Source: an uncultured virus (IMG/VR IMGVR_UViG_3300032007_000041) (Duplodnaviria > Heunggongvirae > Uroviricota > Caudoviricetes). From it: a stretch of DNA of 64,000 nt. Below, piece after piece: positions 859-32,853 of the stretch (position 1 is the stretch's first letter; each line of letters opens with the position of its first letter). Location: IMG/VR virus record IMGVR_UViG_3300032007_000041. One strand, given 5' to 3'. The position numbers and the translations under genes are program-made. The notes under the pieces were generated by a model. The model saw only the letters and a program-made list of their open reading frames with translations, ran no database searches and was not told the origin of the DNA.

Positions 859-1679
859 TCTTTTTCCTCCATTGAACTAATTTTCCAATCAACCAAGGAA
901 TGTTTATGGCAATATTTACAAAAATTTATTCCTTCATCTTTATTATTTAATTCTATTATCTTATCTAAATTATTTATATTAAAAATATTAACATAATCTT
1001 TTCCATAGACCACTTTATATTTTTTATAAAAATAAACATTGTACTTATCAATATTAGCAGGAATAATACAGGGGAAATAATCTCCGTTCCAATTTAATTG
1101 AGCACATGGAAATACATTATAAAATTCATAATTATTTTTATCTTCATTTTGCTTAATTATGTCAATATCACAAGTATAATTATTACAACATTTGTATTTA
1201 TTATTCCCATCAATATTTAAATTTGTTTTATAAAATTTTTTGCCAACATAATATTTTGAACACAAAATTTCAATATTATGACAAAAACAGTAGTCCTTAA
1301 TTCTATCATTTAATAATATTCCATTTGTTACAATTTTCAAATTAATATTTGGAAAAATTCTTTTTGAAATGTCTAGTATTTCAAAAAGTTTGCTATGTAA
1401 TAATGGTTCTCCACCCATTAAACTAATTCCATAAAATTTTTTATCTTTAATAATAAACTTAATCCTATTTAATAAATTTTCAAAAACCTGAACACCTATT
1501 TCTTTGTGTTTATAAACTAATGGGGCAAAATGGTCGCAGTAAGCACAATTTAAATTACAATCTTCAACAATAGATATATCTATTTTTCCTAATCCATTTT
1601 TTCGATATGATAATTCATCTATATATTTTTTTATTGTATGCATATCTTTTTTTACTAATAAATCTATCATACCAATCAA
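846..1679 (-). CDS. Radical SAM protein with short C-terminal Cys (twitch-like) domain
   Basis: CNLNCAYC-DHFAPL, MGGEPLL, VTNG, C-terminal ..PC..FCKYC. Confidence 0.9.
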   Translation of the reverse strand: MIGMIDLLVKKDMHTIKKYIDELSYRKNGLGKIDISIVEDCNLNCAYCDHFAPLVYKHKEIGVQVFENLLNRIKFIIKDKKFYGISLMGGEPLLHSKLFEILDISKRIFPNINLKIVTNGILLNDRIKDYCFCHNIEILCSKYYVGKKFYKTNLNIDGNNKYKCCNNYTCDIDIIKQNEDKNNYEFYNVFPCAQLNWNGDYFPCIIPANIDKYNVYFYKKYKVVYGKDYVNIFNINNLDKIIELNNKDEGINFCKYCHKHSLVDWKISSMEEKEWEI

Positions 1680-1680
1680 C

Positions 1681-2544
1681 TCACCCCATGATTAATTTAA
1701 GAATTAAGTCATCTTTTTTCATAAATAATTTATTTTCTATTTCATTTTTTGTTATATTTAAATTTTGCTCTACATTATCATCAATATTAAATAACGAAAG
1801 ATAATCAGTTAAACCATCATCTTGTGACTTATTTTTCGGAGAATAATGTACTTTTTTACCTAACCACAAAAATTCAAATATCATTTTCCCTATATTTTCA
1901 GAATATATTCCTTTTGTTATTTCTCTCCACCGTTGATATTCTAATTTATTATACATCATATATTTAAATTTAATTTCATCTGTATCTTCAGTATTTCTTA
2001 CGCTTTCATTAAATACCTGATTTATTACTGGAAATTTATTTTTTATAAATTCTAACCTTTCATTTGAAAATTTATGATAATATAAATAATAATTATTCCT
2101 ATAAAAATTCATATTAATTCGATTACCTAAAACAAAAACATTTTCCATCTGTTCAATATAATTATTTTTTATATTGTTATTTGTAATGTAATCATAAAAC
2201 ATTAAGCCTGAATCCAAAACAATTATTTTATTATAACAAAATTTCAAACAAGATAAATATTTTGTAATAGAAAATGAAACAATTAAAACATTAAATTTAT
2301 TATTTTTATAAAATTTATCAATATTATTTATATCTATAAATTCACAATTTACTTTATTAAGAGGTAAAGATTTATATATAGTTTTTATGTATAACATTTG
2401 TTCTTGTAGCTTCAAGCAATCAATAAAAATATAACATTTTAAATTAACTACACCATATTTTTTTAAATTGAAATATAAATCAAACAAAGATGTGGTTATT
2501 CCATTCATTTGTGGATAAAACAATATAATCCCAACATTATCCAT
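1681..2544 (-). CDS. Divergent GT-B-like glycosyltransferase, ENIGKMIFEF family copy 1
   Basis: Paralogous to 7137..8048 and 34545..35699; ENIGKMIFEF resembles the GT4 E-x7-E motif. Confidence 0.5.
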   Translation of the reverse strand: MDNVGIILFYPQMNGITTSLFDLYFNLKKYGVVNLKCYIFIDCLKLQEQMLYIKTIYKSLPLNKVNCEFIDINNIDKFYKNNKFNVLIVSFSITKYLSCLKFCYNKIIVLDSGLMFYDYITNNNIKNNYIEQMENVFVLGNRINMNFYRNNYYLYYHKFSNERLEFIKNKFPVINQVFNESVRNTEDTDEIKFKYMMYNKLEYQRWREITKGIYSENIGKMIFEFLWLGKKVHYSPKNKSQDDGLTDYLSLFNIDDNVEQNLNITKNEIENKLFMKKDDLILKLIMG

Positions 2545-3527
2545 TATTCTATCATACCTTTTATAATATTCTTTAAATTGTTTTCATCTTTTATTTTTAA
2601 TATAATATTTCCTTTTTTTGTGACATAATTGTTATTTTTGATTTTAAAAAATAAATCATTTAAACATTCATCATATAAATTATTTATTATTACTAAATAG
2701 TTATAATTATAATATTTTTGTATTGCTTTTAAAACATTAATCTTCTTTTCTATATCAAAATCAATAAAATACGATATATCAAAATGTAATTGGTTTACAT
2801 CAATTTTTAAATCGGTTAAAACAATAGCTTTTCCTTTATACAACTGATAAAACTCATTATATAACATTCTCATATATTGAATTTGTGGATAAACATTCAT
2901 TATTCTCTTAATATTTTTTCTAATAAAAAATTTTGCTATTGGATAATCACAAAATTTATAATTTTTTGTTTTTGAAACATATCTAAAAATAATTTCATCA
3001 TCTGCCATACGTTTATATCTTAAATCCCACCCACCAAATTTATCATAACAAATTCTTTTATGAGCAAAAGAACAAGTGTCAACTTGATTATTTTCAAATA
3101 TATCAACTTTAGAACAATCTAATCCTTTTTCTTCTATTTTACCATTATCATATACAATTAAATATTTTGTTGTAATAACTTCTGTATTTTTATCAATATA
3201 ATTTAATAATTTTTCACAACAATATTTATCAACCTGGTCATCATCATCAGGATAAATTACCCATTCACCGGTTGAATGTTCAACACCATAATTTCTTGCA
3301 TAACAATGTCCATGATTTTTATCAAACCTATATAAAAATACTCTATCATCATTTAATTTATCAATAAAATTTTTCTTTAATTTATATTGATTTTTTTCGG
3401 AACAATCATCTACAACAATTAGTTCTATATTTTTATATGTTTGATTTACAATTGCTTGCACAGATAGCTTGAAATATTCATACCTATTAAAAGTTGGCAT
3501 TATAAAAGAAAATTTTATTCCATCCAT
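2544..3527 (-). CDS. Glycosyltransferase family 2
   Basis: SFIMPTFNR, ELIVVDDCS, ARNYGV, YPDDDD. Confidence 0.9.
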   Translation of the reverse strand: MDGIKFSFIMPTFNRYEYFKLSVQAIVNQTYKNIELIVVDDCSEKNQYKLKKNFIDKLNDDRVFLYRFDKNHGHCYARNYGVEHSTGEWVIYPDDDDQVDKYCCEKLLNYIDKNTEVITTKYLIVYDNGKIEEKGLDCSKVDIFENNQVDTCSFAHKRICYDKFGGWDLRYKRMADDEIIFRYVSKTKNYKFCDYPIAKFFIRKNIKRIMNVYPQIQYMRMLYNEFYQLYKGKAIVLTDLKIDVNQLHFDISYFIDFDIEKKINVLKAIQKYYNYNYLVIINNLYDECLNDLFFKIKNNNYVTKKGNIILKIKDENNLKNIIKGMIE

Positions 3528-4279
3528 TCGTTCTTATCCTTTTTAGATTTTTCCCACTCTATATTTTCAATTGGTTTTCTACAATATTTACAAAAATCGT
3601 TCTTGTGAGTATAAAAATTACAGATTGTCTCATCTGTAACTGAATCATCATATATATCTAATATGTCACCATCTTTTACTACAAAATTTTCATTAAAATA
3701 GTCATTAAATATATCTATATATGCTTGTATTGGGCATAAAAACAATTTCCCATCTTTTAGTTGTATACTTTCCCAATGTATCATACAACAATCAAATTCT
3801 GTTTGTTTTGCTTCATGTGTTAATATATGTTTTCTTAAAATTTTTGTATATTGTTTTTTATTAAAATCTTTTGTTCTAATTCCTTCTATTTCTAACAATT
3901 TGAATATACCTTTATAATCAATGTTTACAGGATATTTAGTTATTTCAACTAAAATATCATATTTTTTTATATACGGTAATAACTCATGTAATCTTTGTAA
4001 CAAAAGTAATCCATTAGTCAAAAAAGAAATATTTGTATTAGGGCTAATCTCTTTTATAGCATCAAAAAATAAACATATATTTTTATGTAATAATGGCTCC
4101 CCACCAAATATCCTAACATTATCCACATTAATTTTATTAGTTAATTGTTTAAAATCTTTTTTAAATTCTTCAACATTAGCAAACCATGATTTTGACAATG
4201 GGGCAAAATGAGCACACCCTTTACAATTTAAATTACAATGGTTTGTAATATGATATTCTATCATTCTAAGATGTTTCAT
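3515..4279 (-). CDS. Radical SAM protein with twitch-like C-terminus
   Basis: CNLNCKGC-AHFAPL, FGGEPLLH, LTNG, FCKYC; paralog of 846..1679. Confidence 0.9.
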   Translation of the reverse strand: MKHLRMIEYHITNHCNLNCKGCAHFAPLSKSWFANVEEFKKDFKQLTNKINVDNVRIFGGEPLLHKNICLFFDAIKEISPNTNISFLTNGLLLLQRLHELLPYIKKYDILVEITKYPVNIDYKGIFKLLEIEGIRTKDFNKKQYTKILRKHILTHEAKQTEFDCCMIHWESIQLKDGKLFLCPIQAYIDIFNDYFNENFVVKDGDILDIYDDSVTDETICNFYTHKNDFCKYCRKPIENIEWEKSKKDKNEWME

Positions 4280-4284
4280 AAAAT

Positions 4285-5526
4285 TTAGACTCCCTTATCT
4301 AATATTTTTTTTATTAACGATATTTTACTTAAATTCTGCCAAGTTGTATCGTCTGTTCTAAAAATATTAATTTTTACATTTTCAATATTTACAATTTTAT
4401 CTAATGGAAAATACATCCATATATTTTTAACTAATTCTTTATCAGCAATTGAATTTGCATTTTTATTAATAGCATATGAATTTTTATAAACATATAAGCA
4501 ACCTGGATTTAATACACAATCTTTAATTTTATTTAAAATTATTTTGCTATCTTCTCCAACGATAAGCCAATCAAAAGCATTTTTTATATCAAATATACTA
4601 GTTCCAATAGTAAACTGTTTTGGATTTATATTTTTATTATTAGTTGATATACAAACCTCATCAACTTTTTTTAATTGCTCCATTTTTAATTCATTCCATT
4701 TATAATTATTTTTTTTATAATCTTCTTTAGTAATAAGTTTTACGTTGTTTAATTTAATATTATCATTTTTTAATAACATATTAAATACTGTTTTACTCAT
4801 ATATGTAATATTTTCATTATCCATCGCCATTGGCAATCCTAATCTTGCTCCACAAAATTGACACCAATACATTTGTTTTTGATAACTAGTTTCTTTCCAC
4901 CAATCTTTTTGAACTTTGAATCCTGTATTACCATCATATAGCATGTCCATAGCTCCAGCCATTTCACAAAAAAAAGCACCATGATTATTAATTACTGCTC
5001 CACAATCATTATTTACCCAACAATTTTTACTTTGCTTAATAAATTCTTCATCAGATATTCCAAGGTCTTTATAATAAACCATAGTTGTAAAATGATTAGT
5101 ATAATTACTATGGTCATTACATCTTAAAGAATGAAATGTATCATCAATATCTTCAAAATAATCATAAAACTGCTTTGGAACACTTGTAAATAATCTTAGT
5201 TTACCATTATTATCAGGCATAGTATTTAAAGCATAATCATATATATCACTAATTGGATAACGAAAAAATCCATACTTTTTTTTGTATTTCGTTTGTAAAT
5301 ATTTCATTATTTCTTTAAAAAATGGATGTAATAATGGTTCTCCACCCATAATTGATATTTGCCCATTCCAATTATCCAATGAATCTATTGCATTTTTTAC
5401 ATCATGCAAATTCATAAAATATGGATTATTATTCAATTGACAAAATCTCATACAATTAGCACATTTATTTACACATGAATTTGTAATATCTATCAAAATA
5501 GATTTTTTATCTTTAATTAATTTCAT
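4285..5526 (-). CDS. Radical SAM protein
   Basis: CVNKCANC, MGGEPLLHP, CW...CG...FFCE...CQFCG. Confidence 0.85.
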   Translation of the reverse strand: MKLIKDKKSILIDITNSCVNKCANCMRFCQLNNNPYFMNLHDVKNAIDSLDNWNGQISIMGGEPLLHPFFKEIMKYLQTKYKKKYGFFRYPISDIYDYALNTMPDNNGKLRLFTSVPKQFYDYFEDIDDTFHSLRCNDHSNYTNHFTTMVYYKDLGISDEEFIKQSKNCWVNNDCGAVINNHGAFFCEMAGAMDMLYDGNTGFKVQKDWWKETSYQKQMYWCQFCGARLGLPMAMDNENITYMSKTVFNMLLKNDNIKLNNVKLITKEDYKKNNYKWNELKMEQLKKVDEVCISTNNKNINPKQFTIGTSIFDIKNAFDWLIVGEDSKIILNKIKDCVLNPGCLYVYKNSYAINKNANSIADKELVKNIWMYFPLDKIVNIENVKINIFRTDDTTWQNLSKISLIKKILDKGV

Positions 5527-5531
5527 TATAA

Positions 5532-7121
5532 TTATTCCTTATACGAAACTTTATTTTCAATAATTAACCCATCTAATTTTTCTTGATACATTCTATACAT
5601 ATCACTAAAATAATTAAAAATTGGTAATCCACTATCATTAAACGATGTATTAATTAAAATTGCAACTCCTGTTTTGTTGCCAAACGCATATAACAAATTA
5701 TATAACCATTTATCATCTTTTTCACTAACTGTTTGTATACGAATTGTTCCATCTTTATGTATAGCACCTAACAAATTATCAATTTTAGGTTTAGCTAAAA
5801 TATTCATATATGGAACTTGAATATTAATGTCAAAATATTCACTTATTTTATCATCAGGTACAATAATTCCGTATGGTCTATACCATTCTCTACCTTTAAT
5901 GGTATTTAATCTATCATGCATTTCTTTATGAAATGGAGAAGCCAATATACTACGTCTACCTAACGCCCTAGCTCCCATTTCTATGTTACCACGACAAACG
6001 CCAACAATTTTATCATCATTTAATTTATCAACAAGCTCATCTATATCGAATGTTTTAAATTTATTTTGTTTTCTCTCAAAAATTTCTTTTTCTTCCATAT
6101 TATTCGTACAAGAATAATTATTTGATGAAATATATTTCAATTCATCAGGTTTATAATGCAATAAATAATTTAAAACTGCACCGTATGACTGTCCTGTATC
6201 TGCAACTATAGGAGTATAATATACATGGTTAAACCAATTGGTTTTTTCAATCATATAATTTAGCATACAATTCATAGCGCAACCGCCCGAAAATACTAAA
6301 TTATCACTTTCATGACGATATTGAGCCAATTCTCTCATTATCCAATCAATCCATAATTTTTGCATTGTATATGCTAAATCATACTTATCAAATTCTTTAC
6401 TTTGTTCATCCAAAAAATTATAAATATATGTTTCAATCGCTTCTTTATCTTCCCATATATTCCAATTTACATCTTTTATTGCTTTTTCAAAATCATCAAT
6501 ATTTTTAATCTGAACAAAATTATTAGATAAACCTGCATAAGCCATAAATTTTCCTTCTAAACCTTGTTCGTACTTATGACGCTTATCTAAAAAATAACAA
6601 GAAAGAACTTCATAATACATACCATAAGAAAATTTCTGTTCTTGATATAATTTTGTTAATTTATTATTTTGCCAATGATAGAAAGCATGATTTCCATCAC
6701 CTTTACCATCTATAGATAAGCAAAGTGCGTCCTTTAAATTATTTTCAATTATAGCAGGTAACACATGGTTTTCTTGATGATGGAATTTAATTACATCACA
6801 ACGTTCCAACATTTTAACAAAATCATATGATTCTTTTTTCAAATACCCATCTTTAAATGTTTTATAATTCCAACAAACTACATCAAAATGGTCTACACCA
6901 AATTGTTCTTTGATAATTTTTTGACATTTATATAAATTATTACGAAGTTTATCGTTATAAATTCTATCTATTTCAGGCATATAATCAATTATATCTGAAT
7001 GAAAAGAAAAATGCTTCTTTTTTAAGAATTTTTCTAATTCAATATATTTTAATTCTTTTGTATCTGTATTATAATATGTAACATTATAGTCTTGATAACA
7101 TTGTATTCCTAGAATTTTCAT
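5532..7121 (-). CDS. Carbamoyltransferase (NodU/CmcH family)
   Basis: HHQENH, IDGKGD, EGKFMAYAG, FSGGCAMN, GARALGRRSILA, KGREWYRPY, HKDGTIRIQTV, LINTSFN. Confidence 0.92.
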   Translation of the reverse strand: MKILGIQCYQDYNVTYYNTDTKELKYIELEKFLKKKHFSFHSDIIDYMPEIDRIYNDKLRNNLYKCQKIIKEQFGVDHFDVVCWNYKTFKDGYLKKESYDFVKMLERCDVIKFHHQENHVLPAIIENNLKDALCLSIDGKGDGNHAFYHWQNNKLTKLYQEQKFSYGMYYEVLSCYFLDKRHKYEQGLEGKFMAYAGLSNNFVQIKNIDDFEKAIKDVNWNIWEDKEAIETYIYNFLDEQSKEFDKYDLAYTMQKLWIDWIMRELAQYRHESDNLVFSGGCAMNCMLNYMIEKTNWFNHVYYTPIVADTGQSYGAVLNYLLHYKPDELKYISSNNYSCTNNMEEKEIFERKQNKFKTFDIDELVDKLNDDKIVGVCRGNIEMGARALGRRSILASPFHKEMHDRLNTIKGREWYRPYGIIVPDDKISEYFDINIQVPYMNILAKPKIDNLLGAIHKDGTIRIQTVSEKDDKWLYNLLYAFGNKTGVAILINTSFNDSGLPIFNYFSDMYRMYQEKLDGLIIENKVSYKE

Positions 7122-7136
7122 ATATCCAACTTCTTT

Positions 7137-8048
7137 CTAAAACAATGATAAAAATTCATCATTTGATTGCATAAATAATTTTTCTTCAAAATATTGTTTT
7201 TCTTTGTTTGTAAAAATATATGTATTATTATCATCTAAATCCAAATAATTCATATATTCACTTAAACCATCATAAAACTTTTTGTTTTTTGGTAAATACT
7301 GTGATTCTTTCCCCAATAAAATAAATTCAAACATTAATTTACCAATATTTTCGTAATATCTCGCACCATCATCTGTGTATAAATTATCATTATTTTTTTT
7401 ATCATATCTATAATATAAATATTTTTTATAATCAAACGGTTTAATATTATTACCATTTATTTTATTTTTATAATAATCTTCTGCAATTAAAATATCATTT
7501 TTTGTTGTAGATAACTTCTTTAATTTTTCTATTCGTTCTTTAGAAAATTTCATATACCAAATAAAATTATCTTCCACAAATTTAGAATTATATTGATTGC
7601 AAACTGTCAAAACTTTGTGTTCCTTTATATAATTTATTTCATCATTGTATATTGTTAAATCTTTTTGTTGTTTTTTATATATAAATGCAGGATATAATAA
7701 AATCTCTTGTTTTGCAGATTGTTTAAAACGATTATTTTTTTGCAATTTGATTATTTCTGAACTTATGATATTTATATCACCTTTTATATTATAAGTCATT
7801 TTTTTATGTTTAATGATACTTGTATTTCCATACGTATCCATGTATTTTCCAACCCATAAAGGCAAATAACAAATACCATCACCAAATGCTAAATATTCCC
7901 TAAATCGTCTTAACAAATTTTTATCTTCGTATAAAATAATAAATCTTACATCATGATTTGTAAACTTTCTTAAATTATAAAATGTATCTTCAAATGATGT
8001 ATAAGCTCCATTTAATTCATAAAACAAATAAATTAAGTTAATTTTCAT
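7137..8048 (-). CDS. Divergent GT-B-like glycosyltransferase, ENIGKMIFEF family copy 2
   Basis: NGAYTSFED..YNL, MKFSKER, ENIGKLMFEF, DGLSEY shared with paralogs. Confidence 0.5.
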   Translation of the reverse strand: MKINLIYLFYELNGAYTSFEDTFYNLRKFTNHDVRFIILYEDKNLLRRFREYLAFGDGICYLPLWVGKYMDTYGNTSIIKHKKMTYNIKGDINIISSEIIKLQKNNRFKQSAKQEILLYPAFIYKKQQKDLTIYNDEINYIKEHKVLTVCNQYNSKFVEDNFIWYMKFSKERIEKLKKLSTTKNDILIAEDYYKNKINGNNIKPFDYKKYLYYRYDKKNNDNLYTDDGARYYENIGKLMFEFILLGKESQYLPKNKKFYDGLSEYMNYLDLDDNNTYIFTNKEKQYFEEKLFMQSNDEFLSLF

Positions 8049-9183
8049 CGTCTACACTCTCAATACATTCATTGATTTTTTTCATAATATTATTTATATC
8101 ATATTTTTTTGCTTCGTCTAAACAATTTTGTCTCATATTAGATTTGCCAATCTTCATAATTTTATCCATATTTTCATCAAAATTATTATCGATTAACCAT
8201 CCATTATATCCATCTTTAATAAGGTAATTCATTACTTTACATTCTTTAAACCCAACTATGGGTACACCATACGATAATGCTTCTATAATAACTGTCGGCA
8301 ATCCTTCATATTTTGATGGAACAACCAAAACATCTGCATTTTTGTAAAATGCACTTACATTTTCTTGATAACCGTAATAATGTATATTTGGATAATTATA
8401 TTTATCCATATCTATATATCCAAAACCTTTATAACTATATCCGACTACATCACATTCATAATCTGTATTTTTAACCCAATCTAACAATATATGTGTTCTT
8501 TTTGTATCACTATTAATACGCCCAACATATAATATTTTATTTCTATTAGATTTAATATCAATATTATTCGGGATATCTATGCAATTATAAAAGACAACCG
8601 ACTTTTCTTTATATTTTTCACTTATATATTGCGGTAATAAAAAAGCCAATATATCACAATTTTTTAATACTAATTCATATAAACTTTTTTCATCTTTTAA
8701 AATTTCTTGTTTACGAATATAATCCATAGCACGAATATGAGTAATAGTATCCATCATAAACTGCGGTTCATTATGAAAAAACATAATAATTGGTATTTTA
8801 GAAACTTTTGATATAATTGTCCAAAATAATGCATCTTGTCCACAACTAGCATTACAAAATATACATTTAGGTTTTATATTTCTAATTTTAACTACATAAT
8901 CATTAATTAGTCCACGAGATAAATATGTATTTATATTTGTATGTATTGTAACATTATCAATATCAACACATTTTTCTCCTGAAATAAATAAATGGACATT
9001 ATATTTTTTGCTCAATTCATTGCAAATTTTTAATGTATATCTTTCTGCTCCCCACAAATAATTATGTGTTTCTCTTTTACCCATACTATTTGTAACGACT
9101 ACTGTATTATTGTCACCTATATATGTATCAAATTTATTTCCTATCATAAATTGCAATAGAAACATATCATTTTTTGTATTCAC
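8038..9183 (-). CDS. Glycosyltransferase family 4 (GT-B)
   Basis: GAER, ILYVGRI, ADVLVVPSKYEGLPTVIIEALSYGVPIV, IKDGYNGWL. Confidence 0.92.
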   Translation of the reverse strand: MNTKNDMFLLQFMIGNKFDTYIGDNNTVVVTNSMGKRETHNYLWGAERYTLKICNELSKKYNVHLFISGEKCVDIDNVTIHTNINTYLSRGLINDYVVKIRNIKPKCIFCNASCGQDALFWTIISKVSKIPIIMFFHNEPQFMMDTITHIRAMDYIRKQEILKDEKSLYELVLKNCDILAFLLPQYISEKYKEKSVVFYNCIDIPNNIDIKSNRNKILYVGRINSDTKRTHILLDWVKNTDYECDVVGYSYKGFGYIDMDKYNYPNIHYYGYQENVSAFYKNADVLVVPSKYEGLPTVIIEALSYGVPIVGFKECKVMNYLIKDGYNGWLIDNNFDENMDKIMKIGKSNMRQNCLDEAKKYDINNIMKKINECIESVDDEN

Positions 9184-10006
9184 GGCAAGCCATCCTCAAA
9201 AGTTTAGTTTCGTATTCTTTATTTATTCTATCTTCTGCATACATCTTCCAAATTTCACCAAATAAAGAACTTTTCTTCCACGGTTTAGGATTACTAGCAA
9301 AATGTAAAATTCGTATATTATCAGATTTTATTTTTTCACCATAAATACGAATTAATTCATTAAACCTATATTTGCTATATGTATTAGCTAAAAAATTATA
9401 TCCATAACTAATATATTTTATTTTCCCTAAAAATGCTTTATTTAAAACATCTTGCTCCCATAAAAAACCTTTATTTTCTTTTAGTTCTTTATTCAATTCG
9501 TCATAATAAACATACATTGTTTTATCTTTATCTATTATACTTTCTCTAATCTTTTTTAAATTAAAATACACATTACCTGCATTAAAATATGAAAATCCAT
9601 TTATTTTGTCTCTTACTGCTCCACAAAAATAATCTGATATATTGATATTAAATATATCAGATATATCTTTTATAACAATAGTATCTGAATCAATATGAAA
9701 TACTGTATCACAATCTAATAAATTATGTAACAATAATTTGTAATATACAACACCTGCATTATCATCTGATACAAAAATATTTTTATCTATATAAATTGGT
9801 ATTATATGAAAATCATCACTATCTAAACTTTTAATATCCTGTATATCTTTAAATTCTATACATAATAAATAAACATCGTAACAAATGTCACGATGTTTAT
9901 TGAATTTCAATGATTTCATTGAAATATATGTTTGAAATAGATAAGATTGATTTGTCATATAAACTATATTAAAACAGTTTTCCTGACAACTCATAATAAG
10001 CCTCAC
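9167..10006 (-). CDS. Glycosyltransferase family 8 (true start probably the Met at 9994)
   Basis: HIDSDTIV (DxD), YFNAGN, EQDVLN, ILHFASNPKPW. Confidence 0.9.
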   Translation of the reverse strand: MRLIMSCQENCFNIVYMTNQSYLFQTYISMKSLKFNKHRDICYDVYLLCIEFKDIQDIKSLDSDDFHIIPIYIDKNIFVSDDNAGVVYYKLLLHNLLDCDTVFHIDSDTIVIKDISDIFNINISDYFCGAVRDKINGFSYFNAGNVYFNLKKIRESIIDKDKTMYVYYDELNKELKENKGFLWEQDVLNKAFLGKIKYISYGYNFLANTYSKYRFNELIRIYGEKIKSDNIRILHFASNPKPWKKSSLFGEIWKMYAEDRINKEYETKLLRMACREYKK

Positions 10007-10604
10007 TAATTTCTTGTTTTGTCTTTGCAGCTTTAATCTTTTCTTTATATTCTTTATATTTCATATAAACTGCATCAATAGCATTAAAATCATCAAGAGA
10101 ATCAAGATATTCTGAAAGTTTTTCTAGTGTTTCTGTATCGCCACTATTAATTACTTCCAAATATTTTTCTTCCCTATTTTCATCTGTAATAAAGAAACCT
10201 TTAGCTTCAAGATAATGGTTTAATTTAAAGAAATGATATAATTCAAAATTAGAAATCATTAATTGATTACTAATTAATTCATTAATCATTCTTAATGTTT
10301 TTTCTTTATAAGCATCTAAAACATCTTCGTCTGTTTCTTCTTGTAATTGTTCTACCTTAATTAAATCAGATACATCATATACTTTACTAGCATCTATTTC
10401 TCCATCAATATAAATAAGCATACGTGGTTCACGATGTTCCAAATCTAATTCTTGAACAACATAAGTATATGCTTCTGGTGTTAACCAAACATATTCTTTA
10501 TTACTTAGCAAAACTTGTTCCATATCTAATTTCTGAAATGGTTCAATTAAAAAATTTTTACCATCTTGTTCAAGAGTTTTACAAAAAAAATTCATTGTCG
10601 CCAT
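9969..10604 (-). CDS. Hypothetical protein in the radical SAM/Cys-rich protein operon
   Basis: 211-aa ORF overlapping its neighbours; no motif recognised. Confidence 0.7.
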   Translation of the reverse strand: MATMNFFCKTLEQDGKNFLIEPFQKLDMEQVLLSNKEYVWLTPEAYTYVVQELDLEHREPRMLIYIDGEIDASKVYDVSDLIKVEQLQEETDEDVLDAYKEKTLRMINELISNQLMISNFELYHFFKLNHYLEAKGFFITDENREEKYLEVINSGDTETLEKLSEYLDSLDDFNAIDAVYMKYKEYKEKIKAAKTKQEISEAYYELSGKLF

Positions 10605-10870
10605 TATTCTGTCTCCTTATTAATTTCTTCAATAATACTATCAATATTTTTTTCTTCTTTTTCTTCTTTTAATTGTACGTTTTCATCATAGTCTAATCCA
10701 TATTTTCTTCCCATACTTATCATAGACATAGATATAATACTATTAATAGCTTGATATGCAACCTTATCTAACGGATAAATCATTTGACGAGCCATTTCTA
10801 AAAAATTTCGTTCCGTCAACATAAATTCCAAAATTTTCTGTTTTTCTTCTTTTGTTTGTTCTTTTATCAA
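10604..10870 (-). CDS. Hypothetical protein
   Basis: 88-aa ORF, GAAAGGA RBS before a TTG start, overlaps the next start. Confidence 0.65.
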   Translation of the reverse strand: MIKEQTKEEKQKILEFMLTERNFLEMARQMIYPLDKVAYQAINSIISMSMISMGRKYGLDYDENVQLKEEKEEKNIDSIIEEINKETE

Positions 10871-10891
10871 AATACTATATCCTTTCTTATA

Positions 10892-12277
10892 TTATACAAT
10901 ATATTGATATGAATAGCACCAACCACGAACTTTAACAACATAACAAGCACAGGAAGCTTCATGTCCAAAACAAGAGCAATAATTACAATTGCAAACACAT
11001 AAACTAGAAATTAAATTGATAGCTTTCATAAAATATGTTGCTACATTCGTACCTGCAATATTTAATGTATATTCACCTCTTGTAATTCCTAAAGGATTCA
11101 TACAAAATCTTGCTACTGTAATATTTGATTCTTGTGAAAAATTCCTTGTTTCTATCTGTTTTATTGGATTACCATTAACATCTTTCATAATGTTACCGTT
11201 TTTATCTTTAACCACGGTTTCTCTTGTACCAATACAATTTTGAACAAACATTGGGTCAATATCACCTGCTTCAGATATTCCACCTAATAAAGCAGTTCTC
11301 CATCTGTACACATAAGTATATAGGTCTGAAGGTATATATCCAAATACATCAAATGCAGGTTTTCTAATGCCATCATCATAAGTTACATACTTAACATAAT
11401 CTATATTGCCATATGGTCTGCGTTTAGGTTGATATATAACACCCCCACCTAAATTATATATTGGTTGCGTTGAATATCCATAAATATCACTTGTTAGTAG
11501 ATTGTCTGGTTCATGTGCAGAAACAACAGTATTGCCTTCAATATTGTTTATTTCATCTTGCTGTATTCCTGAATGTCGATATACATATTCTCTCATATCT
11601 GAACCTGTAAACCAGTTATTCCCTTTATGTGAACCAACATTTATTTCAGAAGCATTAGGATTATAATCTAATTGAGCGAAATCAGGTTCATTCTTTGCAG
11701 ATGTATTAACGGTAGTTGAAGAACCACCACTACTATAAGTTATAATACTGTCACTTTTATCTACTGACAATGGGAACGTTTGTATAGGCAATCTATCATT
11801 AACAGAACTTGATGCTTTAGCTGGTAACTCAATTTTAAATAATGTCAATATATCAGAAAAAATTTTTTCTATATCACTTTGGCGTATTTTGTCACCACTA
11901 GCCATATATCCACTATGCCCATTTTGGGAATCCAATTGAGCACTCATTGGTTGCAAAGTTCCTGGTCCATTCATAAAATTATTTCTTAACATAAATTCTT
12001 GGCGAATTTTAATTAGCAAAGCATTCCATTCATCATTTGTAATTGGATTATCATCAAAATTTTCTCTCAATCTAGTTGAACGCCTTTGATAGCTATGATT
12101 TGCTAAATATGATTGTGAACTACTATCGAATGTTGACCACAAACTAGTGGAAAATTCATAGTCTTTATCACCACCTGGTGTACCATATGGTTTGCATATA
12201 GGAAATTTTCCTGTTGGGTCAGGAACATATTGATAAAATCCGTCGCCTTTAAATCTATTTGCTATTTGTACTGACAT
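10892..12277 (-). CDS. Large protein with C-terminal Cys cluster; candidate radical SAM/SPASM substrate, possibly virion-associated
   Basis: Ends ...SLCVCNCNYCSCFGHEASCACYVVKVRGWCYSYQYIV; directly downstream of two SPASM enzymes. Confidence 0.6.
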   Translation of the reverse strand: MSVQIANRFKGDGFYQYVPDPTGKFPICKPYGTPGGDKDYEFSTSLWSTFDSSSQSYLANHSYQRRSTRLRENFDDNPITNDEWNALLIKIRQEFMLRNNFMNGPGTLQPMSAQLDSQNGHSGYMASGDKIRQSDIEKIFSDILTLFKIELPAKASSSVNDRLPIQTFPLSVDKSDSIITYSSGGSSTTVNTSAKNEPDFAQLDYNPNASEINVGSHKGNNWFTGSDMREYVYRHSGIQQDEINNIEGNTVVSAHEPDNLLTSDIYGYSTQPIYNLGGGVIYQPKRRPYGNIDYVKYVTYDDGIRKPAFDVFGYIPSDLYTYVYRWRTALLGGISEAGDIDPMFVQNCIGTRETVVKDKNGNIMKDVNGNPIKQIETRNFSQESNITVARFCMNPLGITRGEYTLNIAGTNVATYFMKAINLISSLCVCNCNYCSCFGHEASCACYVVKVRGWCYSYQYIV

Positions 12278-12337
12278 ATCTATATCAACTCCATTATATA
12301 TTTATTTTCAAAAAATTGATTATCTATTTAATAAATA

Positions 12338-13414
12338 TTAATGAGTCAATTTATAATATGCTTTAATATAATCAGAGATTTTATTATATAATTTACAAAC
12401 ATCTTCTTTATTTGAATTATTCCATTGTTCTTTTTTACCATTGCTATTTAAAGCATTACATCTAAAACAAAATATAGATTCACAATTAGAACATTTTTCA
12501 TTTTTTTTAAACATATTGTTTGCAACTAAATAATTACAATCTACCTTATGCAAAAAATTATCTTCAAAAATATTCGTATATACTAAATCTTGTTTCCCAT
12601 ACAAACAACCGTGACAATAAGATACATCACCATTCAAATCTATTTGAAATGAATTATATCCACCTGAACAATCCGCATTACTATTTGGCTGGTCAAACCA
12701 TAAAAATCCTGTTTGACCAAACTCTTTATTTTTCAAGAAATAACGGATTAATTTAATAAACTGATTATTCATTTTATTATAATCCACATTGCCTACATTT
12801 AATGTATCTGGTGTTAACGCAAATGGAATTTTTTTCTTTAATTCTTTATTTAATTTCTCAAAATTCAAATATTGTTCAAATAAATGTTCTTCTAAATCAT
12901 TAATTGTACACGTAGATTTTGTGCCAACATAAAAATCATTTTCATCAAACCATTTTATTGCTTCTCGTACCATTTTATCTGTTTCTTCCGCACTATGATT
13001 TAATTGTATACGTTGATTATTTTCTATATTATGATAATCATATGATACTTGAATCTGTAATCTTCTTCCTACGTGTTCTTTTATTTCTAATAAATCATTT
13101 TTATATGCTTGCACTAACGAACCATTTGTATACATGAAAAAGCTAACATCTTTATTATCATAAAATTCTGATATTATTTTTTTAATTTTATCAAAATAAA
13201 CTGTTGGTTCTCCACCCCAAAATTCAATTCTTAGTTCATTAACTTCTGCTAATTCATGTAATACTTCTATAATTCTGTCAAAAACATTTTGTGGAATACT
13301 TTCGTTTTTTTCAACTGCTCCATTTTTAACCTCAAAGCAATATTTACAACGGAAATTACAACCGCTCCCCATATTAATAGAAACTGACATAGGTGTTTTC
13401 ATAATTATTATCAT
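12338..13414 (-). CDS. Radical SAM/SPASM domain protein
   Basis: CNFRCKYC, WGGEP, YTNG; SPASM-type CSGG...GDVSYC...CSNCESIFCFRC...C. Confidence 0.9.
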   Translation of the reverse strand: MIIIMKTPMSVSINMGSGCNFRCKYCFEVKNGAVEKNESIPQNVFDRIIEVLHELAEVNELRIEFWGGEPTVYFDKIKKIISEFYDNKDVSFFMYTNGSLVQAYKNDLLEIKEHVGRRLQIQVSYDYHNIENNQRIQLNHSAEETDKMVREAIKWFDENDFYVGTKSTCTINDLEEHLFEQYLNFEKLNKELKKKIPFALTPDTLNVGNVDYNKMNNQFIKLIRYFLKNKEFGQTGFLWFDQPNSNADCSGGYNSFQIDLNGDVSYCHGCLYGKQDLVYTNIFEDNFLHKVDCNYLVANNMFKKNEKCSNCESIFCFRCNALNSNGKKEQWNNSNKEDVCKLYNKISDYIKAYYKLTH

Positions 13415-14454
13415 TCCTTATTTAATATATTAATATTATATTTATTTTTCATATATTGATATAATTTTGTAACCATATGAAAACATATTTTCAAAACTTC
13501 ACAATATCCATCTATAATACCATTATTCTGTATTTGTGAATATAAACACCCTTGATTACAAAAATTATTCAAAATACATTTATTACATTTATCATTATAT
13601 GTATTATTAATAGATTTTATATATGATATATTATCTTCAAAATATGTATCGTTATTACTGTCATACAATGGATATTGATGATTTGTATAAAATCTTGAAC
13701 AAGGATAAATTATACCTTCAGGAGTTATACTAAATCCACTACTACCTGCAAAACATATAAAATTTCTTTTTCCATTTAACAAATTTTGTAATATCTTTTC
13801 AACAAATCCTATATAAATCCATCTATTATAATTGTCATAATTCATTACCATAAAATCATATAAATTGTTTACCTGATTTTTTAATTCATTTAAACTATTT
13901 TTGTCCCATATATTATCCTTGACAAAAGATACATCTATATAAAAATTATCTATATCATTCTTCATAGCTAATTTATAAAAATAAACGATGTTTTTCATCA
14001 TATTATAAACATTATGATTATCTATCATCATTTTTGGTTGCATTTCTACAATTTTATTTTTGTATAATTGTTCTATATATTTATGATTATTGTCATTACA
14101 ACCATCACAACTAATTCCTATATGAATATTTCTTGTGTCAAATTCATTTTTAATTTTATCATTCAATAATATACCATTCGTTTGCATAAAACTATGCACT
14201 ACATTTAAATTAGTTTTTAAGTACTCGTCAAATAATAAAATATTTTCATATTCTAATAAAGGTTCTCCACCAAAATATGTTACATCATATTCTCCGTCAA
14301 AACTATCATCTATTTTTTTAGATAAATATTGTATATTTTTGATTTGTTTTTTTAATACATCAAATGTTAATTTTTTTGAATTTTGATTTATATAACAATA
14401 CTCACATTTTAAATTACAAGCATTCGTCATATGAATTTGTATAACATGCTTCAT
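13411..14454 (-). CDS. Radical SAM/SPASM domain protein
   Basis: CNLKCEYC, FGGEP, QTNG; CFAG...GIIYPC...CNKCILNNFCNQGC...YC. Confidence 0.92.
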   Translation of the reverse strand: MKHVIQIHMTNACNLKCEYCYINQNSKKLTFDVLKKQIKNIQYLSKKIDDSFDGEYDVTYFGGEPLLEYENILLFDEYLKTNLNVVHSFMQTNGILLNDKIKNEFDTRNIHIGISCDGCNDNNHKYIEQLYKNKIVEMQPKMMIDNHNVYNMMKNIVYFYKLAMKNDIDNFYIDVSFVKDNIWDKNSLNELKNQVNNLYDFMVMNYDNYNRWIYIGFVEKILQNLLNGKRNFICFAGSSGFSITPEGIIYPCSRFYTNHQYPLYDSNNDTYFEDNISYIKSINNTYNDKCNKCILNNFCNQGCLYSQIQNNGIIDGYCEVLKICFHMVTKLYQYMKNKYNINILNKE

Positions 14455-14504: not shown

Positions 14505-17237
14505 TTATTCTCCTTTTTCATTAATTACCATATCGTTCATATACGTATTCCTATTTTTTATATTCAATGGATATTGATAAGAATATTTTGCCATATAACC
14601 ATACCTATTATCATTTGGTATACCACTAATACTTGTTATATTTTTCATTTCATGATAAATGTTATCATATCCACCATAATATAATTTATTAAAATCACTT
14701 ATTGAAAATACATACATATCTCTTTCTATTGTATCATACAAATATGATTTACTTAATAATACACTAAATGATGTTAGTTGTTGTTGTGCATAACTATAAA
14801 TATCATTAAAATGTATATCTGTTTCAATAATTTCTTGACCTATTTGTTTCTTTAAAATAATATTTATAGTCGTTTTTATCAATTTACCTTTTAACCAATT
14901 TAAAATTACATATGTATTTTCGTCCATTTCATAAATTCTTGCTCTACACAAATCTTTATATACAAAATGCTCTCTTGTATCATCATTCCCATAAAAATCT
15001 TGTGGCTTTGCAGAATATAAGTTAATTCCACCATAATATATATTGCAATTTCTAAAAATTGCATAATCATCAATGTTTTTTGTTTTAAATGGTTTTGATA
15101 CTTTGATAAAATATTTATTATTTAGACTTTCATATCCTATCTGTGGTATTAAATTCAATCCATCGTCTATATAATGATAATTCAAATTAATATTGTCTAT
15201 ATCTATATCATATCTAGGATTTCCTTCAGAAATATTATCATCATATATTAGAAAATCTTCTCTACAAGTTACATCTATATTCGCATTAAATTTAATATTT
15301 ACATTCGTTGTTTTATTTTGAAATTTAACAATTACAGGAATAGTAATTTTATAGAAAAACATTTGAGCAGAAAATTTTAAATTATAGTCAGTATAACCCA
15401 TATCTTTATAATAATAATCTTTCGTCTTATACGAAGATGTAGTATTATTATACTTTAATTCATATTCTACTCCATCTTTTGTTATCGTAGGTAAATTTTG
15501 TATATAAGACATTAATTTTGATTTTAATTCTCCATATATATTCGTTATCATATCATTACAATTAATTACAGTCAATTCATAATTCTCTATAATTACTTTT
15601 TGAAAAATATTTCTACCATCAAAATTAATAAATTTAATTAGTAAATTATCTTTTTTATCAAAACAACAAATATCATGCTCTTTTACATAATTTATTGTAT
15701 TTTGCGTTAATCTCACATTAAAATCATATTTTTCATAATTAATTCCATCATATTGAATAATGTGTACACCAAATTCATCAAAATTAACAAAGAAAAAATA
15801 TTTATCATTATATGTAATATAATCACAATCAAAATATTTTTCTTGACTTTCTGTAATTGGTAATTTTACTTTTTTAGGTACTGTAATCGTAGATGATGCT
15901 AAACTTGTTCCTACAGGAATAAAATTTAAATCATAATTTTTCTTATTTAAAGTAAAATATCCATCTAATGCATTTTCGTCTACTGTATTATCTACATAAG
16001 TAGAATCAAATTCAATATTAATTTTGTTTTTACTATATTTAACAATCTTATTACCTGTTTTACTTGTACTTAAAGCAAGTGAATTATCATGTTGTGGTGT
16101 AATCACAAAAGAAGTAAAAATATCATCACCACAAGATAATAATATATTAAAAGAACAGGTATCTTTATGGATTATTTTTCTATCTTTATCTATAACTTTT
16201 GTTATAATACCTTTTCCTGTAAATTCAAATTTGTTTGGGTCTTTATTTGTTGCATGTTTTTTATATTTCTTCCTTAAATATTGAGTGGAAAATTTTTCTG
16301 CGTGAAACAAATAGTCACCAATCTTAATCTCAACAAATCCATTATACTTTTCTCTTTTATCAATTACCATTTCAAATACTTTACCATCATATTCAGGATT
16401 TACAATGTCTTTAGATGTATCATCAATAGTATTGTTAATAACCCCAACAATTCCACCATAAATACCATATTCTTTATCTGTATCTTCATGCAAGTATGAA
16501 ATTGTATTCAAAGAAAGAGAATTTGGATAGATTAACGTGGATAATATAATAGGTTTCGTGATTCCATTTGTTGTAATAATAACTGCTTTATATAAAACTG
16601 TCCTTGTTTCTTTTAATGTGGTATCAAATGAAAAATGTGTATAATAATATTGATGGTCTTTTATTTCCATTTGACCTAGATAACTCCATTTTATATCTCT
16701 AGTATCATAATGATTATTATAATCAGATTCTTCTGATATACGACTATGTTCATCTATTTCAGTTAATGGAGCTATATGATTATATAGTAAAACCTTATCT
16801 ATTTGATATTCTGTTTCTAAATTCAATATTATATCTAAATAAGAATAGTTTTCATGTAATCCATAAGTAGAAAAACTTCTTATTTTTATTTTATCTTCTA
16901 CATTTGAATATACAATTTTAAAATAAAAATCATTCTTAAATATTTTTCCACCTTCAAGAATTAATTCTACTGCATAATTGTAATTACCAAAACCTAACCA
17001 ATTATCATCTTTAATTTCATATTTTGTACTTGAACGTTGATTAATTTTATAATCGTTATATACTTCTCCGTTTTTATAAATAATGATATGATTAATTGGT
17101 GATTCCAAATGATTTACAGCAAAATTAAAAGCAAAATTATATATATATTCTCTTGCAAAAAACACATCTTTAGTATCTTCTAATATATGTTCATATTTAT
17201 TATCTGCAAATGAAAATACTATATCACGATTTATCAT
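14505..17237 (-). CDS. Large hypothetical protein (910 aa)
   Basis: Long ORF with GGTGA RBS; Tyr/Asn/Ile-rich; no motif recognised. Confidence 0.75.
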   Translation of the reverse strand: MINRDIVFSFADNKYEHILEDTKDVFFAREYIYNFAFNFAVNHLESPINHIIIYKNGEVYNDYKINQRSSTKYEIKDDNWLGFGNYNYAVELILEGGKIFKNDFYFKIVYSNVEDKIKIRSFSTYGLHENYSYLDIILNLETEYQIDKVLLYNHIAPLTEIDEHSRISEESDYNNHYDTRDIKWSYLGQMEIKDHQYYYTHFSFDTTLKETRTVLYKAVIITTNGITKPIILSTLIYPNSLSLNTISYLHEDTDKEYGIYGGIVGVINNTIDDTSKDIVNPEYDGKVFEMVIDKREKYNGFVEIKIGDYLFHAEKFSTQYLRKKYKKHATNKDPNKFEFTGKGIITKVIDKDRKIIHKDTCSFNILLSCGDDIFTSFVITPQHDNSLALSTSKTGNKIVKYSKNKINIEFDSTYVDNTVDENALDGYFTLNKKNYDLNFIPVGTSLASSTITVPKKVKLPITESQEKYFDCDYITYNDKYFFFVNFDEFGVHIIQYDGINYEKYDFNVRLTQNTINYVKEHDICCFDKKDNLLIKFINFDGRNIFQKVIIENYELTVINCNDMITNIYGELKSKLMSYIQNLPTITKDGVEYELKYNNTTSSYKTKDYYYKDMGYTDYNLKFSAQMFFYKITIPVIVKFQNKTTNVNIKFNANIDVTCREDFLIYDDNISEGNPRYDIDIDNINLNYHYIDDGLNLIPQIGYESLNNKYFIKVSKPFKTKNIDDYAIFRNCNIYYGGINLYSAKPQDFYGNDDTREHFVYKDLCRARIYEMDENTYVILNWLKGKLIKTTINIILKKQIGQEIIETDIHFNDIYSYAQQQLTSFSVLLSKSYLYDTIERDMYVFSISDFNKLYYGGYDNIYHEMKNITSISGIPNDNRYGYMAKYSYQYPLNIKNRNTYMNDMVINEKGE

Positions 17238-17247
17238 TTCATCACCA

Positions 17248-17541
17248 TCATTCTGCTAAAAATAAATTTCCTGTTTTTATAGCCTTTGGTATTAAATCTC
17301 TTAATCCTTCCATACAATCTATCGCCAAATCATAATCTTTAAAATGCATCCTATCATTTTTTGATTTTTCCTCTGAATGATATTCGTTAATGATAAAATA
17401 TTTTAAATCTTCAGGATTTAAATTTAATGTCATAGCTAAAGTTTTATTTGTATTAAATTGTATTTCCACTCCACCTACAAGACGATATGCAACTACATAG
17501 TATCCATATTCATCTTCTTCTACTTTAAAGTCTATAAGCAT
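17248..17541 (-). CDS. Hypothetical protein (start reassigned to MLIDFK...)
   Basis: AAGGAGG RBS directly precedes the ATG at 17541. Confidence 0.7.
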   Translation of the reverse strand: MLIDFKVEEDEYGYYVVAYRLVGGVEIQFNTNKTLAMTLNLNPEDLKYFIINEYHSEEKSKNDRMHFKDYDLAIDCMEGLRDLIPKAIKTGNLFLAE

Positions 17542-17671
17542 AATTATTCCTCCTTCTAAAAACATATACAAATGTGTACAAAAGTGTATTTTACGCACGT
17601 TTGAACACACTTGCGTATGCTTTTGGATGCTTAACGATTAGTCCTATGTAATATATCTCTAATTAATAAAT

Positions 17672-17703
17672 AAAAGGACGTACAATTTAATATACGTCCT
17701 TTT
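17672..17703. terminator. Intrinsic terminator
   Basis: AAAAGGACGTA-loop-TACGTCCTTTT. Confidence 0.7.
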
Positions 17704-17706
17704 AAC

Positions 17707-17940
17707 TTAATTTATATGTAATAACAACCATCGAAACACAAAATCATCATTCAACAGATTTATTTGTTTATCTTGTAATTGAAATTGTCCATTAATCATT
17801 TTATTACAATAACAATTCCAAACCGGACCAGACATCATTACTGATAAACGTGTATCTCCTTTATCAAAATAATGACCTAATGGGTCTTTAAAATATCTAT
17901 ATCCTAATTTTTTCATATGACCTATAATTTTTCCTGTCAT
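17707..17940 (-). CDS. Hypothetical protein
   Basis: 77-aa ORF with GGTGA RBS, followed by a terminator. Confidence 0.65.
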   Translation of the reverse strand: MTGKIIGHMKKLGYRYFKDPLGHYFDKGDTRLSVMMSGPVWNCYCNKMINGQFQLQDKQINLLNDDFVFRWLLLHIN

Positions 17941-17944
17941 ATCA

Positions 17945-18487
17945 TCACCACAAATCTAATTCATCTGTGATTAACATTTTAATAAATGGAGTAATCATTT
18001 TTTTAGGGAACATAATATCTGTCTGCTTACGAATTTTTGCAGTAGCAGAATTATGTGAATCTCCATTCATACGACAACTATCATAAAAATCACATAAATG
18101 TAACATAATCGCATATAGATGAATATTATTTACATCCAGTCCGCTAGGATAACCGCTACCATCTAAATTTTCCATATGTTGTGATACAATATCTGCAATT
18201 CTATCATAATCGCCTAAATTACAAATAACTGCTTTTGAAAATAATGGATATACATTATCTAAAGAAACTATATCTTTCCCAATTTTAATTTCTTTATCAA
18301 AATTACATTTGCCAACTTCATGTAAAAATCCTGCAATATATAATGTTTCTCTATCCACACTATCTATATCAAACTTTTTTCCAAATTCATAGCACATCAT
18401 AGCTACACGTTCAGAATGTTTATAGATTTCAGGATATTTTTGTTCCATTATATCTAAAAGTTTATTTACTTTTTCCATTCGCTTCAA
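17945..18487 (-). CDS. HD-GYP domain protein with degenerate metal-binding motifs
   Basis: HSERVA, LHEVGK (canonical LHDIGK), QHMENLDGSGYP (canonical HHE..DGSGYP), CDFYD. Confidence 0.85.
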   Translation of the reverse strand: MKRMEKVNKLLDIMEQKYPEIYKHSERVAMMCYEFGKKFDIDSVDRETLYIAGFLHEVGKCNFDKEIKIGKDIVSLDNVYPLFSKAVICNLGDYDRIADIVSQHMENLDGSGYPSGLDVNNIHLYAIMLHLCDFYDSCRMNGDSHNSATAKIRKQTDIMFPKKMITPFIKMLITDELDLW

Positions 18488-27900: not shown

Positions 27901-27942
27901 ACATTACTATCCTTTCATAATTGTATATTATATATATTATAT

Positions 27943-27978
27943 AAAAAAAGAGAAGTGTTTTTTAACTTCTCTTTTTTT
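27943..27978. terminator. Intrinsic terminator
   Basis: AAAAAAGAGAAGT-loop-ACTTCTCTTTTTT. Confidence 0.7.
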
Positions 27979-27984
27979 TTAACA

Positions 27985-28578: not shown

Positions 28579-28580
28579 CT

Positions 28581-31711: not shown

Positions 31712-31751
31712 ATTTTCACAACCCTGTATATTATCTATAAAAAAAATAAAT

Positions 31752-31779
31752 AAAGACAAGTTTTTTACAACTTGTCTTT
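31752..31779. terminator. Intrinsic terminator
   Basis: AAAGACAAGTT-loop-AACTTGTCTTT. Confidence 0.7.
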
Positions 31780-31784
31780 TCATT

Positions 31785-32821: not shown

Positions 32822-32853
32822 CTACTATTCCTTTTCTTAAAATATTATCTTTT

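Follow-up and report, generated by a model that had tools for sequence, protein, structure and literature searches.

In the present study, we analysed a 64,000-nucleotide (nt) stretch of DNA from an uncultured tailed phage (IMG/VR record IMGVR_UViG_3300032007_000041; hereafter, the window). On sequence grounds, a module at 9969-14454 is a divergent member of a phage cassette that is not unique to the phage of the window; the conserved cassette is real and is widespread in phages. The module encodes two radical S-adenosylmethionine (SAM) enzymes of the SPASM type (enzymes A and B), a protein of 461 amino acids (aa) with a Cys-rich C-terminal tail, and two small proteins of 88 and 211 aa. On balance, it appears probable that A and B would jointly install Cys thioethers, probably to Asn or Asp, in a fibre-type virion protein, and that the 211-aa protein would serve as a Tfa-like chaperone; the chemistry is of a known kind, and the setting is new.

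The cassette across phages

The 211-aa protein belongs to the family phrog_25260 (248 representatives at 50% identity), and the stretches recovered in a scan with a 211-type motif came from viral (21), genome (3), and metagenome (104) sequences. Together with the loci previously collected, 135 loci were available. Nine gave no profile hit and were left out; the remaining 126 included 41 near-duplicates, among them the window's own contig (L049), and 51 of the 85 distinct loci had less than 5 kb of upstream sequence. The 34 loci with at least 5 kb upstream were counted; five are from the clade of the window itself. On its upstream side, the 211-type gene was accompanied by a Cys-tailed protein in 30 loci, by B in 29, A in 26, and a third radical SAM group (clade C) in 8; as the A and B profiles were built from the same loci, these counts classify and do not discover, and a leave-out test (below) covers the enzymes of the window. 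A and B occurred together in 26 loci, B alone in three, and neither in four. In the downstream control (36 flanks), the Cys-tailed protein and A were each found once and B never, although other radical SAM genes were present in 31 flanks. The initial annotation had regarded the 461-aa protein as the substrate of the enzyme pair and had suggested a profile search for the co-occurrence of these genes. The co-occurrence upstream and its near absence downstream, despite the other radical SAM genes there, argue for a functional link of A and B with the Cys-tailed protein, and the 461-aa protein is the likely substrate.

Core parts of the cassette are also carried by the cultured Campylobacter phages CP220, CP21, CPt10, and F379 (Firehammervirus core genes: phrog_1802, phrog_25260, and phrog_26958). 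In CP220 (Firehammervirus), A (gp023), B (gp136), the 211-type protein (gp015), and a 534-aa protein with a helix and CNCNYC repeats (gp140) are unlinked, and the retention of all four parts in spite of this was counted for joint function. The accessible text of the Campylobacter phage papers describes numerous radical SAM genes and an intragenic repeat of 21 bp and does not link them to such a cassette (PMC2853527, PMC3322345, PMC4546147); for CP220, CPT_0186 corresponds to gp48, and CPT_0180 is the gene with the repeat (PMC2853527). In the literature on radical SAM/SPASM with phage, virion, or fibre, as covered by titles, the beginnings of abstracts, and few subscription papers, we did not find such a cassette described.

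In the window, the five open reading frames (ORFs) of the module all lie on the minus strand where they were initially placed, with the overlaps described at that time. The features are as follows.

13411-14454, minus strand: radical SAM/SPASM enzyme A, 347 aa, without an N-terminal RRE (recognition element for RiPPs, peptides made by ribosomes and modified after translation)
12338-13414, minus strand: radical SAM/SPASM enzyme B, 358 aa, without an RRE; ATGA overlap with A
12324-12337, minus strand: candidate late promoter motif TATTT-N4-WATAG, 47 nt before the start of the 461-aa gene
10892-12277, minus strand: putative substrate of 461 aa, with an FPIC[KR]P start, three helices, a variable insert, and a Cys tail
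10895-11053, minus strand: last helix and eight-Cys tail (residues 409-461 of the 461-aa protein), the presumed recognition/modification site
10604-10870, minus strand: 88-aa acidic protein, TTG start, probably helical, clade-restricted
9969-10604, minus strand: 211-aa protein of the phrog_25260 family, the marker of the cassette; TAATG overlap with the 88-aa gene
9868-9901, minus strand: 15-bp terminator-like hairpin, within the beginning of the GT8 gene
9167-10006: GT8 gene, overlapping the 211-aa gene

Several loci show variants of this layout. Clade C, a shorter radical SAM group with a four-Cys C-terminal motif, was found in L043, L091, L015, L108, L023, L019, L027, and L008, and all eight loci have long CNCNYC-repeat tails. 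Enzyme B is split into two ORFs in CP21 (78875-80003) and L095 (6531-7607), which is either a genuine break or a sequencing error. A DNA methyltransferase-like gene is inserted inside the cassette in L004 (6095-7297) and L006 (5080-6282), and a transposase-like gene in L057 (4096-5325). The complete cassette, with A, a small gene, B, the Cys protein, and the 211-type gene, is present in a Bdellovibrionales genome bin (L029, 8453-11301), as either a phage or a cellular copy.

The Cys-tailed protein and its small companions

The 461-aa protein was initially described as Gly/Ser/Pro-rich with a C-terminal Cys cluster, and its composition agrees with this. Eight of its 11 Cys residues lie within the last 35 aa, a density (at least 8 Cys in 35 aa) otherwise found only in two CQ-type proteins (below) among 338 ORFs of the genome, and its Gly, Ser, and Pro share (21.9%) ranks third among the 191 ORFs of at least 150 aa. 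All 13 aligned sequences, which are 255-525 aa long, have the FPIC start, C28, and each of the eight Cys of the tail, and the tail is 69-86% identical among relatives versus 27-55% for the middle. In the structural model (predicted local distance difference test, pLDDT, 57), the helices at 81-98, 133-150, and 409-425 are confident and the insert and tail are of low confidence; the helix at 409-425 adjoins CVCNC, as expected from the earlier observation of a helix right before CNC. A three-helix base with a variable insert is reminiscent of the T-even gp38 adhesins. No match was found for the 461-aa protein in Pfam, NCBIfam, or PHROG; its Atlas matches (best, 0.85; nearest named family, PF27846, 0.77) were kept as leads only.

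The distant Cys proteins of the cassette have repeated helices and CxC[ND] tails. Among 431 Cys positions in 40 tails, the next residue is Asn in 196 and Asp in 23. Peptidase_S74, a self-cleaving chaperone, directly follows the tail in 8 of the 9 fused proteins tested, and all three split ORFs also matched it; a regular-expression match in L041 was spurious. One relative has a Gly_rich_2 insert in the Cys protein, and 7 of the 9 upstream genes tested matched tail-fibre PHROGs. Where S74 is split, the Cys protein stops just past the S-D-x-R-L-K start and the remainder is encoded separately by an ORF of about 90 aa. This ORF lies next to the Cys gene in L012 (8392-9377), L013 (8399-9201), L035 (3985-4870), and L074 (3696-4484) and several kb off in L019 and L028; the arrangement may reflect either recoding or a chaperone that is naturally split.

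When the helix and tail of the 461-aa protein were compared with the distant Cys-tailed proteins, profile to profile, the match had a probability of 85.6 (E 5.6e-6). The kinship of the 461-aa protein to the fibre-type Cys proteins thus appears moderate, and the link seems to reside mainly in the helix and Cys tail. With a Cys-free profile of the last helix, the 461-aa protein was not singled out (E 4.9), and tblastn with a distant Cys protein as the query retrieved no phage record. The fibre role is therefore an extrapolation from the relatives, with which the enzymes, the 211-type gene, and the gene order are shared. The window lies on a 281-kb contig of a myovirus related to Bacillus phage G, with 80% identity between its major capsid protein (39144-39989) and that of phage G. 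The portal gene is at 47321-49063, and genes for the tail sheath and large lytic tail proteins follow downstream on the same strand; these positions place the module between head and tail genes. This position and the fibre and S74 context in relatives make the initially suggested late, virion-associated role of the 461-aa protein likely.

The small C-terminal core behind a conserved helix also resembles a RiPP precursor, the middle is variable, and the fold searches with the 461-aa protein revealed no fibre fold. The tail might accordingly be cleaved and released as a RiPP-like peptide for host take-over, anti-defence, or competition, in which case the rest would be a giant leader and no part of the virion. 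However, the cassette has no protease or transporter, the neighbours are tail-fibre genes, and, given the self-cleavage of S74, the S74 domain that follows the tail in relatives would leave the tail on the larger protein. We consider such a release improbable.

For the 211-aa protein, the initial annotation had offered two roles, a substitute for an RRE or a chaperone, and only the latter finds some support. In the model (pLDDT 90), the N-terminal part is a beta domain and the C-terminal part consists of long helices. This is the two-domain layout of the fibre chaperone Pam3 gp25/Mu Tfa, with its variable N-terminal beta and conserved C-terminal helical domains (PMC9608196), to which we found no significant sequence or fold match. 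A weak match to phrog_1348 (E 0.0066 over 28 aa) and weak fold matches (six DUF4376 rows, E 0.07-0.86; 7ypx_a, E 0.88) point in the same direction; Pfam DUF4376 itself matched none of 121 members of the 211-type family, and the search of solved structures gave generic helical bundles only. Judged from the model, the protein is a probable Tfa/DUF4376-like fibre chaperone. No PqqD/RRE row appeared in the fold searches with the 211-aa protein, and the 88-aa protein had no family match in Pfam, NCBIfam, or PHROG, so that the proposed RRE substitution is not borne out for either small protein. The 88-aa protein is confined to the window's phage clade. In many other loci, a helical gene of similar size stands beside enzyme B in its place, and the complementary distributions are merely a hint; homology between the two was not significant (hhalign probability 2%, and the profile misses the 88-aa protein in the genome). 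An Atlas match of the 88-aa protein (0.77) was kept as a lead only.

Enzymes A and B and their likely chemistry

Enzymes A and B are 28% identical (89/316), and both have the CxxxCxxC core and GGEP and SxDG-type motifs. In A, the core Cys are residues 13, 17, and 20, and the SPASM Cys are 234, 252, 290, 293, 299, 303, and 318; in B, the SPASM Cys are 249, 267, 308, 311, 316, 319, and 340, with a shortened Cx2Cx4Cx2C spacing. The seven SPASM Cys are invariant in 29 of 29 A and 33 of 33 B sequences. FWGGEP is conserved in B, and His268 is present in 32 of 33 sequences. The residues past the second SPASM Cys are clade-specific: C-x-R in A (PCxR conserved) and C-H-G in B. The two enzymes form two clades across many unrelated phages, both in a quick tree of 88 rows (support by the Shimodaira-Hasegawa-like approximate likelihood ratio test, 95 and 99) and in a more careful tree of 31 rows (98/92 for clade A and 91/94 for clade B), and both clades are old.

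The SPASM model TIGR04085 scored 39.7 bits for A (cutoff 27) and was not among the best 25 models for B. The top NCBIfam model of both enzymes was PapB (A, 121.5 bits; B, 69.3 bits; cutoff 340). For A, the SCIFF model scored 69.9 bits (cutoff 425) and TIGR03942, the anaerobic sulfatase maturase (anSME), 66.5 bits (cutoff 349); the latter was not among the best 25 models for B. The QhpD model scored 67.9 and 35 bits for the two enzymes (cutoff 453). CteB was the best match in the PDB for both (A, E 1e-13; B, E 2e-8), and no sulfatase match was found among the 63 window proteins scanned. From the NCBIfam ranking and the CteB match, the enzymes are nearer to thioether-forming maturases than to the anSME, in line with the initial proposal. 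The CteB alignments begin at CteB residue 99, opposite residues 5 and 11 of the enzymes; thus, neither enzyme carries an RRE, and a discrete RRE was not found within the cassette either.

Of the known systems, CteB/SCIFF and PapB (PDB 5WGG/5WHY; NF047865, TIGR03974) provide the best matches and share the seven SPASM Cys and, in B, the His. In contrast, here there are two enzymes without an N-terminal RRE, the scores are under the cutoffs, and a 461-aa phage protein containing Cys-Asn runs is presumed to be the substrate. A and B resemble ranthisynthases in sequence but, by the cutoffs and the lack of an RRE, fail family membership. At the six CteB residues that lie close to its catalytic site (F, F, T, S, H, and Q; PMC10288494), B has F, W, Y, S, H, and G and shares three, including the His after the auxiliary Cys.

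Thioether formation on whole proteins has precedents in QhpD/QhpC and in CrpC/CrpA of Methanococcus voltae, in which a SPASM enzyme staples the Cys-rich C-terminus of a whole protein encoded by a neighbouring gene (PMC13692751). CrpC has a 3+4 ligation of its auxiliary clusters with an open site (PMC13692751), with which the seven invariant SPASM Cys of A and B are in agreement. CrpC is, however, a single archaeal enzyme with an RRE that acts on CxxQ/D repeats, whereas A and B are a pair without an RRE and the tail lacks such repeats; the CrpC model TIGR04463 was not among the best 25 for A or B, and the word 'phage' does not occur in the main text of the CrpC paper (PMC13692751). In thuricin CD, the two radical SAM enzymes TrnC and TrnD jointly install thioethers as a complex (PMC12093266). 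A and B are comparable with this system in the two-enzyme idea; the TrnC/TrnD product is a sactionine bacteriocin, and there the complex was shown. For A and B, the predicted complex with the 88-aa protein as a partner gave a median of 0.39, and one control gave 0.42, which speaks neither for nor against a complex. NxxcB forms a Cys-Asn beta-thioether in NxxcA (PMC9389541), and this precedent and the frequent Asn after Cys in the tails favour a Cys-to-Asn/Asp thioether. NxxcA is, however, a short streptococcal peptide, and the 461-aa tail has no exact N-x-x-C from N430 or N432; therefore, the ring size would differ from that in NxxcA.

Other or additional chemistry on the Cys tail, such as formylglycine formation, epimerisation, or Tyr/Trp C-C or C-O cross-links, with A and B possibly catalysing two reactions, was also considered. 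A and B are unlike at five of the six catalytic-proximity positions, the tail holds the conserved residues W453, Y455, Y457, and Y459, the anSME score of A is near its SCIFF score, and B is distant from every characterised family. On the other hand, the anSME has eight SPASM Cys and A and B conserve seven, PapB-type models are at the top for both, and the aromatic residues are lost in distant tails, in which Cys-Asn is kept. We regard such chemistry as unlikely, though not negligible, and favour thioether formation.

The window also contains a second module (CQ module; 25926-29693, minus strand), with two SPASM enzymes (26812-29693) 44% identical to each other and a 301-aa protein with a helix and NCNC/CQ motifs. 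When the window's clade was left out of the profiles, A scored 209 bits with the A profile and B 253 bits with the B profile, and the CQ enzymes scored 55-94 bits. The CQ enzymes form their own branch in the tree, and a single one is present in G003; neither CP220 nor the complete record G005 has a close CQ-type enzyme. From these separate clades, leave-out scores, and absences, the A/B pair is independent of the CQ pair, as initially suggested. A third Cys protein of 224 aa (L138, 13773-15185; G000, 275772-276446) lies far off and is of the same type as the CQ protein; it directly follows a gene with a weak match to the tail-fibre family phrog_6722, with no adjoining radical SAM gene. All three Cys proteins of the genome have a helix and CNC, which could permit cross-talk between the window's Cys-Asn (CN) module and the CQ module as readily as the orthogonality that was initially proposed.

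Transcription unit, surroundings, and proposed maturation

The motif at 12324-12337 reads TATTTATTAAATAG. The pattern TATTT-N4-WATAG has 12 copies in the intergenic DNA of the minus strand versus a mean of 1.6 and a maximum of 5 in 200 shuffles, an excess that is somewhat inflated because the pattern was derived from the same genome. Ten of the 12 copies are within the 5-130 kb part that carries the structural genes, and the motif is upstream of the 461-aa orthologue in three of five related loci. The presence of the motif before the 461-aa gene, noted initially, was thus confirmed, and its late nature is inferred. A sigma-70 promoter scan was at the chance level (54 versus 48.5). In RNA libraries of four studies, contigs of near-100% identity span 9951-13366 at a depth of 9-67 (mostly at least 25) versus 3-10 on the flanks, and two of them end at 9951. 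As the runs were chosen through their match to this stretch and come from RNA libraries only, this is a weak hint and no proof of transcription. Bovine gut is the label of most runs that hold the module.

A hairpin about 70 nt past the stop of the 211-aa gene is present in all six clade loci and is kept despite sequence changes (-18 to -23 kcal/mol; equally strong in 1 of 40 random stretches). It is therefore likely that the unit stops, for the most part, short of the glycosyltransferase cluster, in contradiction to the initial view that it runs on into that cluster. The cluster after the cassette (846-10006, minus strand) encodes glycosyltransferases, carbamoyltransferase, and Twitch-type radical SAM enzymes, and the same is found downstream of the 211-type gene in many loci; its products may glycosylate a virion protein.

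Because of these sugar genes, with radical SAM genes in the 31 flanks mentioned above, and because Cys-x-Cys runs are able to bind metals, the Cys tail could also be an unmodified metal, Fe-S, or disulfide site, with the enzymes serving the neighbouring glycan, or cluster loading or repair. However, A and B keep upstream with the Cys protein, apart from the sugar genes; the conserved hairpin divides the cassette from the sugar unit; and A and B are like SPASM peptide maturases, in contrast to the Twitch-type enzymes of the sugar cluster. We therefore give this explanation little weight and return to thioether formation on the tail.

Several observations weigh against thioether formation in a fibre-type virion protein. 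Every NCBIfam family score (PapB, SCIFF, and QhpD) is far under its cutoff, and enzyme A, with Y, F, Q, S, S, and R, shares just two of the six CteB proximity residues. The loci with B and without A indicate that the pair is not strictly obligate. Unlike many of the distant Cys-tailed proteins, to which the domain Peptidase_S74 (PF13884) is fused, the 461-aa protein has no S74 in the Pfam scan and no recognisable fibre gene alongside, and fold searches with its model gave nothing clear. Without the tail, the profile-profile match to the distant Cys proteins falls to a probability of 12.8; a profile of 31 distant Cys proteins places the 461-aa protein first of 827 ORFs, yet with an E of 0.24. 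The 211-aa protein has no fold match at E of 0.001 or lower. According to the accessible text of the CP220 paper, the Cys protein is absent from the 11 identified virion bands (PMC2853527).

Some further features of the window and related loci were noted. A 910-aa protein (14505-17237, minus strand), which has no match in Pfam, NCBIfam, or PHROG, is encoded directly upstream of enzyme A and also in L003, L004, L006, and L033; it occupies the slot held by tail-fibre genes in distant loci. At 17352-18000, the contig depth is high in all four RNA libraries, with mixed variants near 17550-17650, possibly from a repeated element or an abundant small RNA. Three very acidic tandem proteins of about 310 aa (30920-33786, minus strand) look paralogous and have no Pfam match. 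At 42705-43380 (minus strand), a radical SAM gene and a gene for an NAD-dependent epimerase/dehydratase are represented by short fragments that overlap (103 and 147 aa, respectively); both genes are probably decayed or deleted.

In the mechanism that we propose, A and B would act together during infection of an anaerobic host, possibly as a TrnC/TrnD-like complex. A Cys of the substrate would occupy the site that is open on auxiliary cluster I. The 5'-deoxyadenosyl radical would abstract H from a nearby side chain, most likely at the C-beta of Asn or Asp, and a thioether ring would close on the Cys tail of the 461-aa protein. As an outcome, a virion protein of the fibre/adhesin type, with a helix scaffold and a swappable middle, would end in a stapled, redox-proof knob; the 211-aa protein would be the Tfa-like assembly chaperone and the 88-aa protein an accessory. 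A broader reading is conceivable, and we hold it only tentatively: many unrelated tailed phages would have in common an undescribed virion-maturation pathway, in which an old RRE-less SPASM heterodimer with dedicated small proteins staples the Cys-Asn tail of a fibre-tip adhesin. This adhesin would have three helices in a pseudo-threefold arrangement and a swappable insert that governs host recognition, and two pathways of this kind would operate in the phage of the window, each with its own substrate code (CN or CQ).

Proven radical SAM thioether stapling of whole proteins is limited to few cases (QhpC and CrpA), and we found none in a virus. The presence of core parts in CP220, CP21, CPt10, and F379 makes the idea testable in cultured phages, and enzymes able to staple Cys-Asn runs in folded proteins without an RRE would be potential tools for protein engineering. 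If our interpretation is true, it would explain part of the surplus of radical SAM genes in Campylobacter group II phages, noted since 2010 (PMC2853527), and the enzymatic cross-linking by phages of their own host-contact proteins would be a new modification of the virion.

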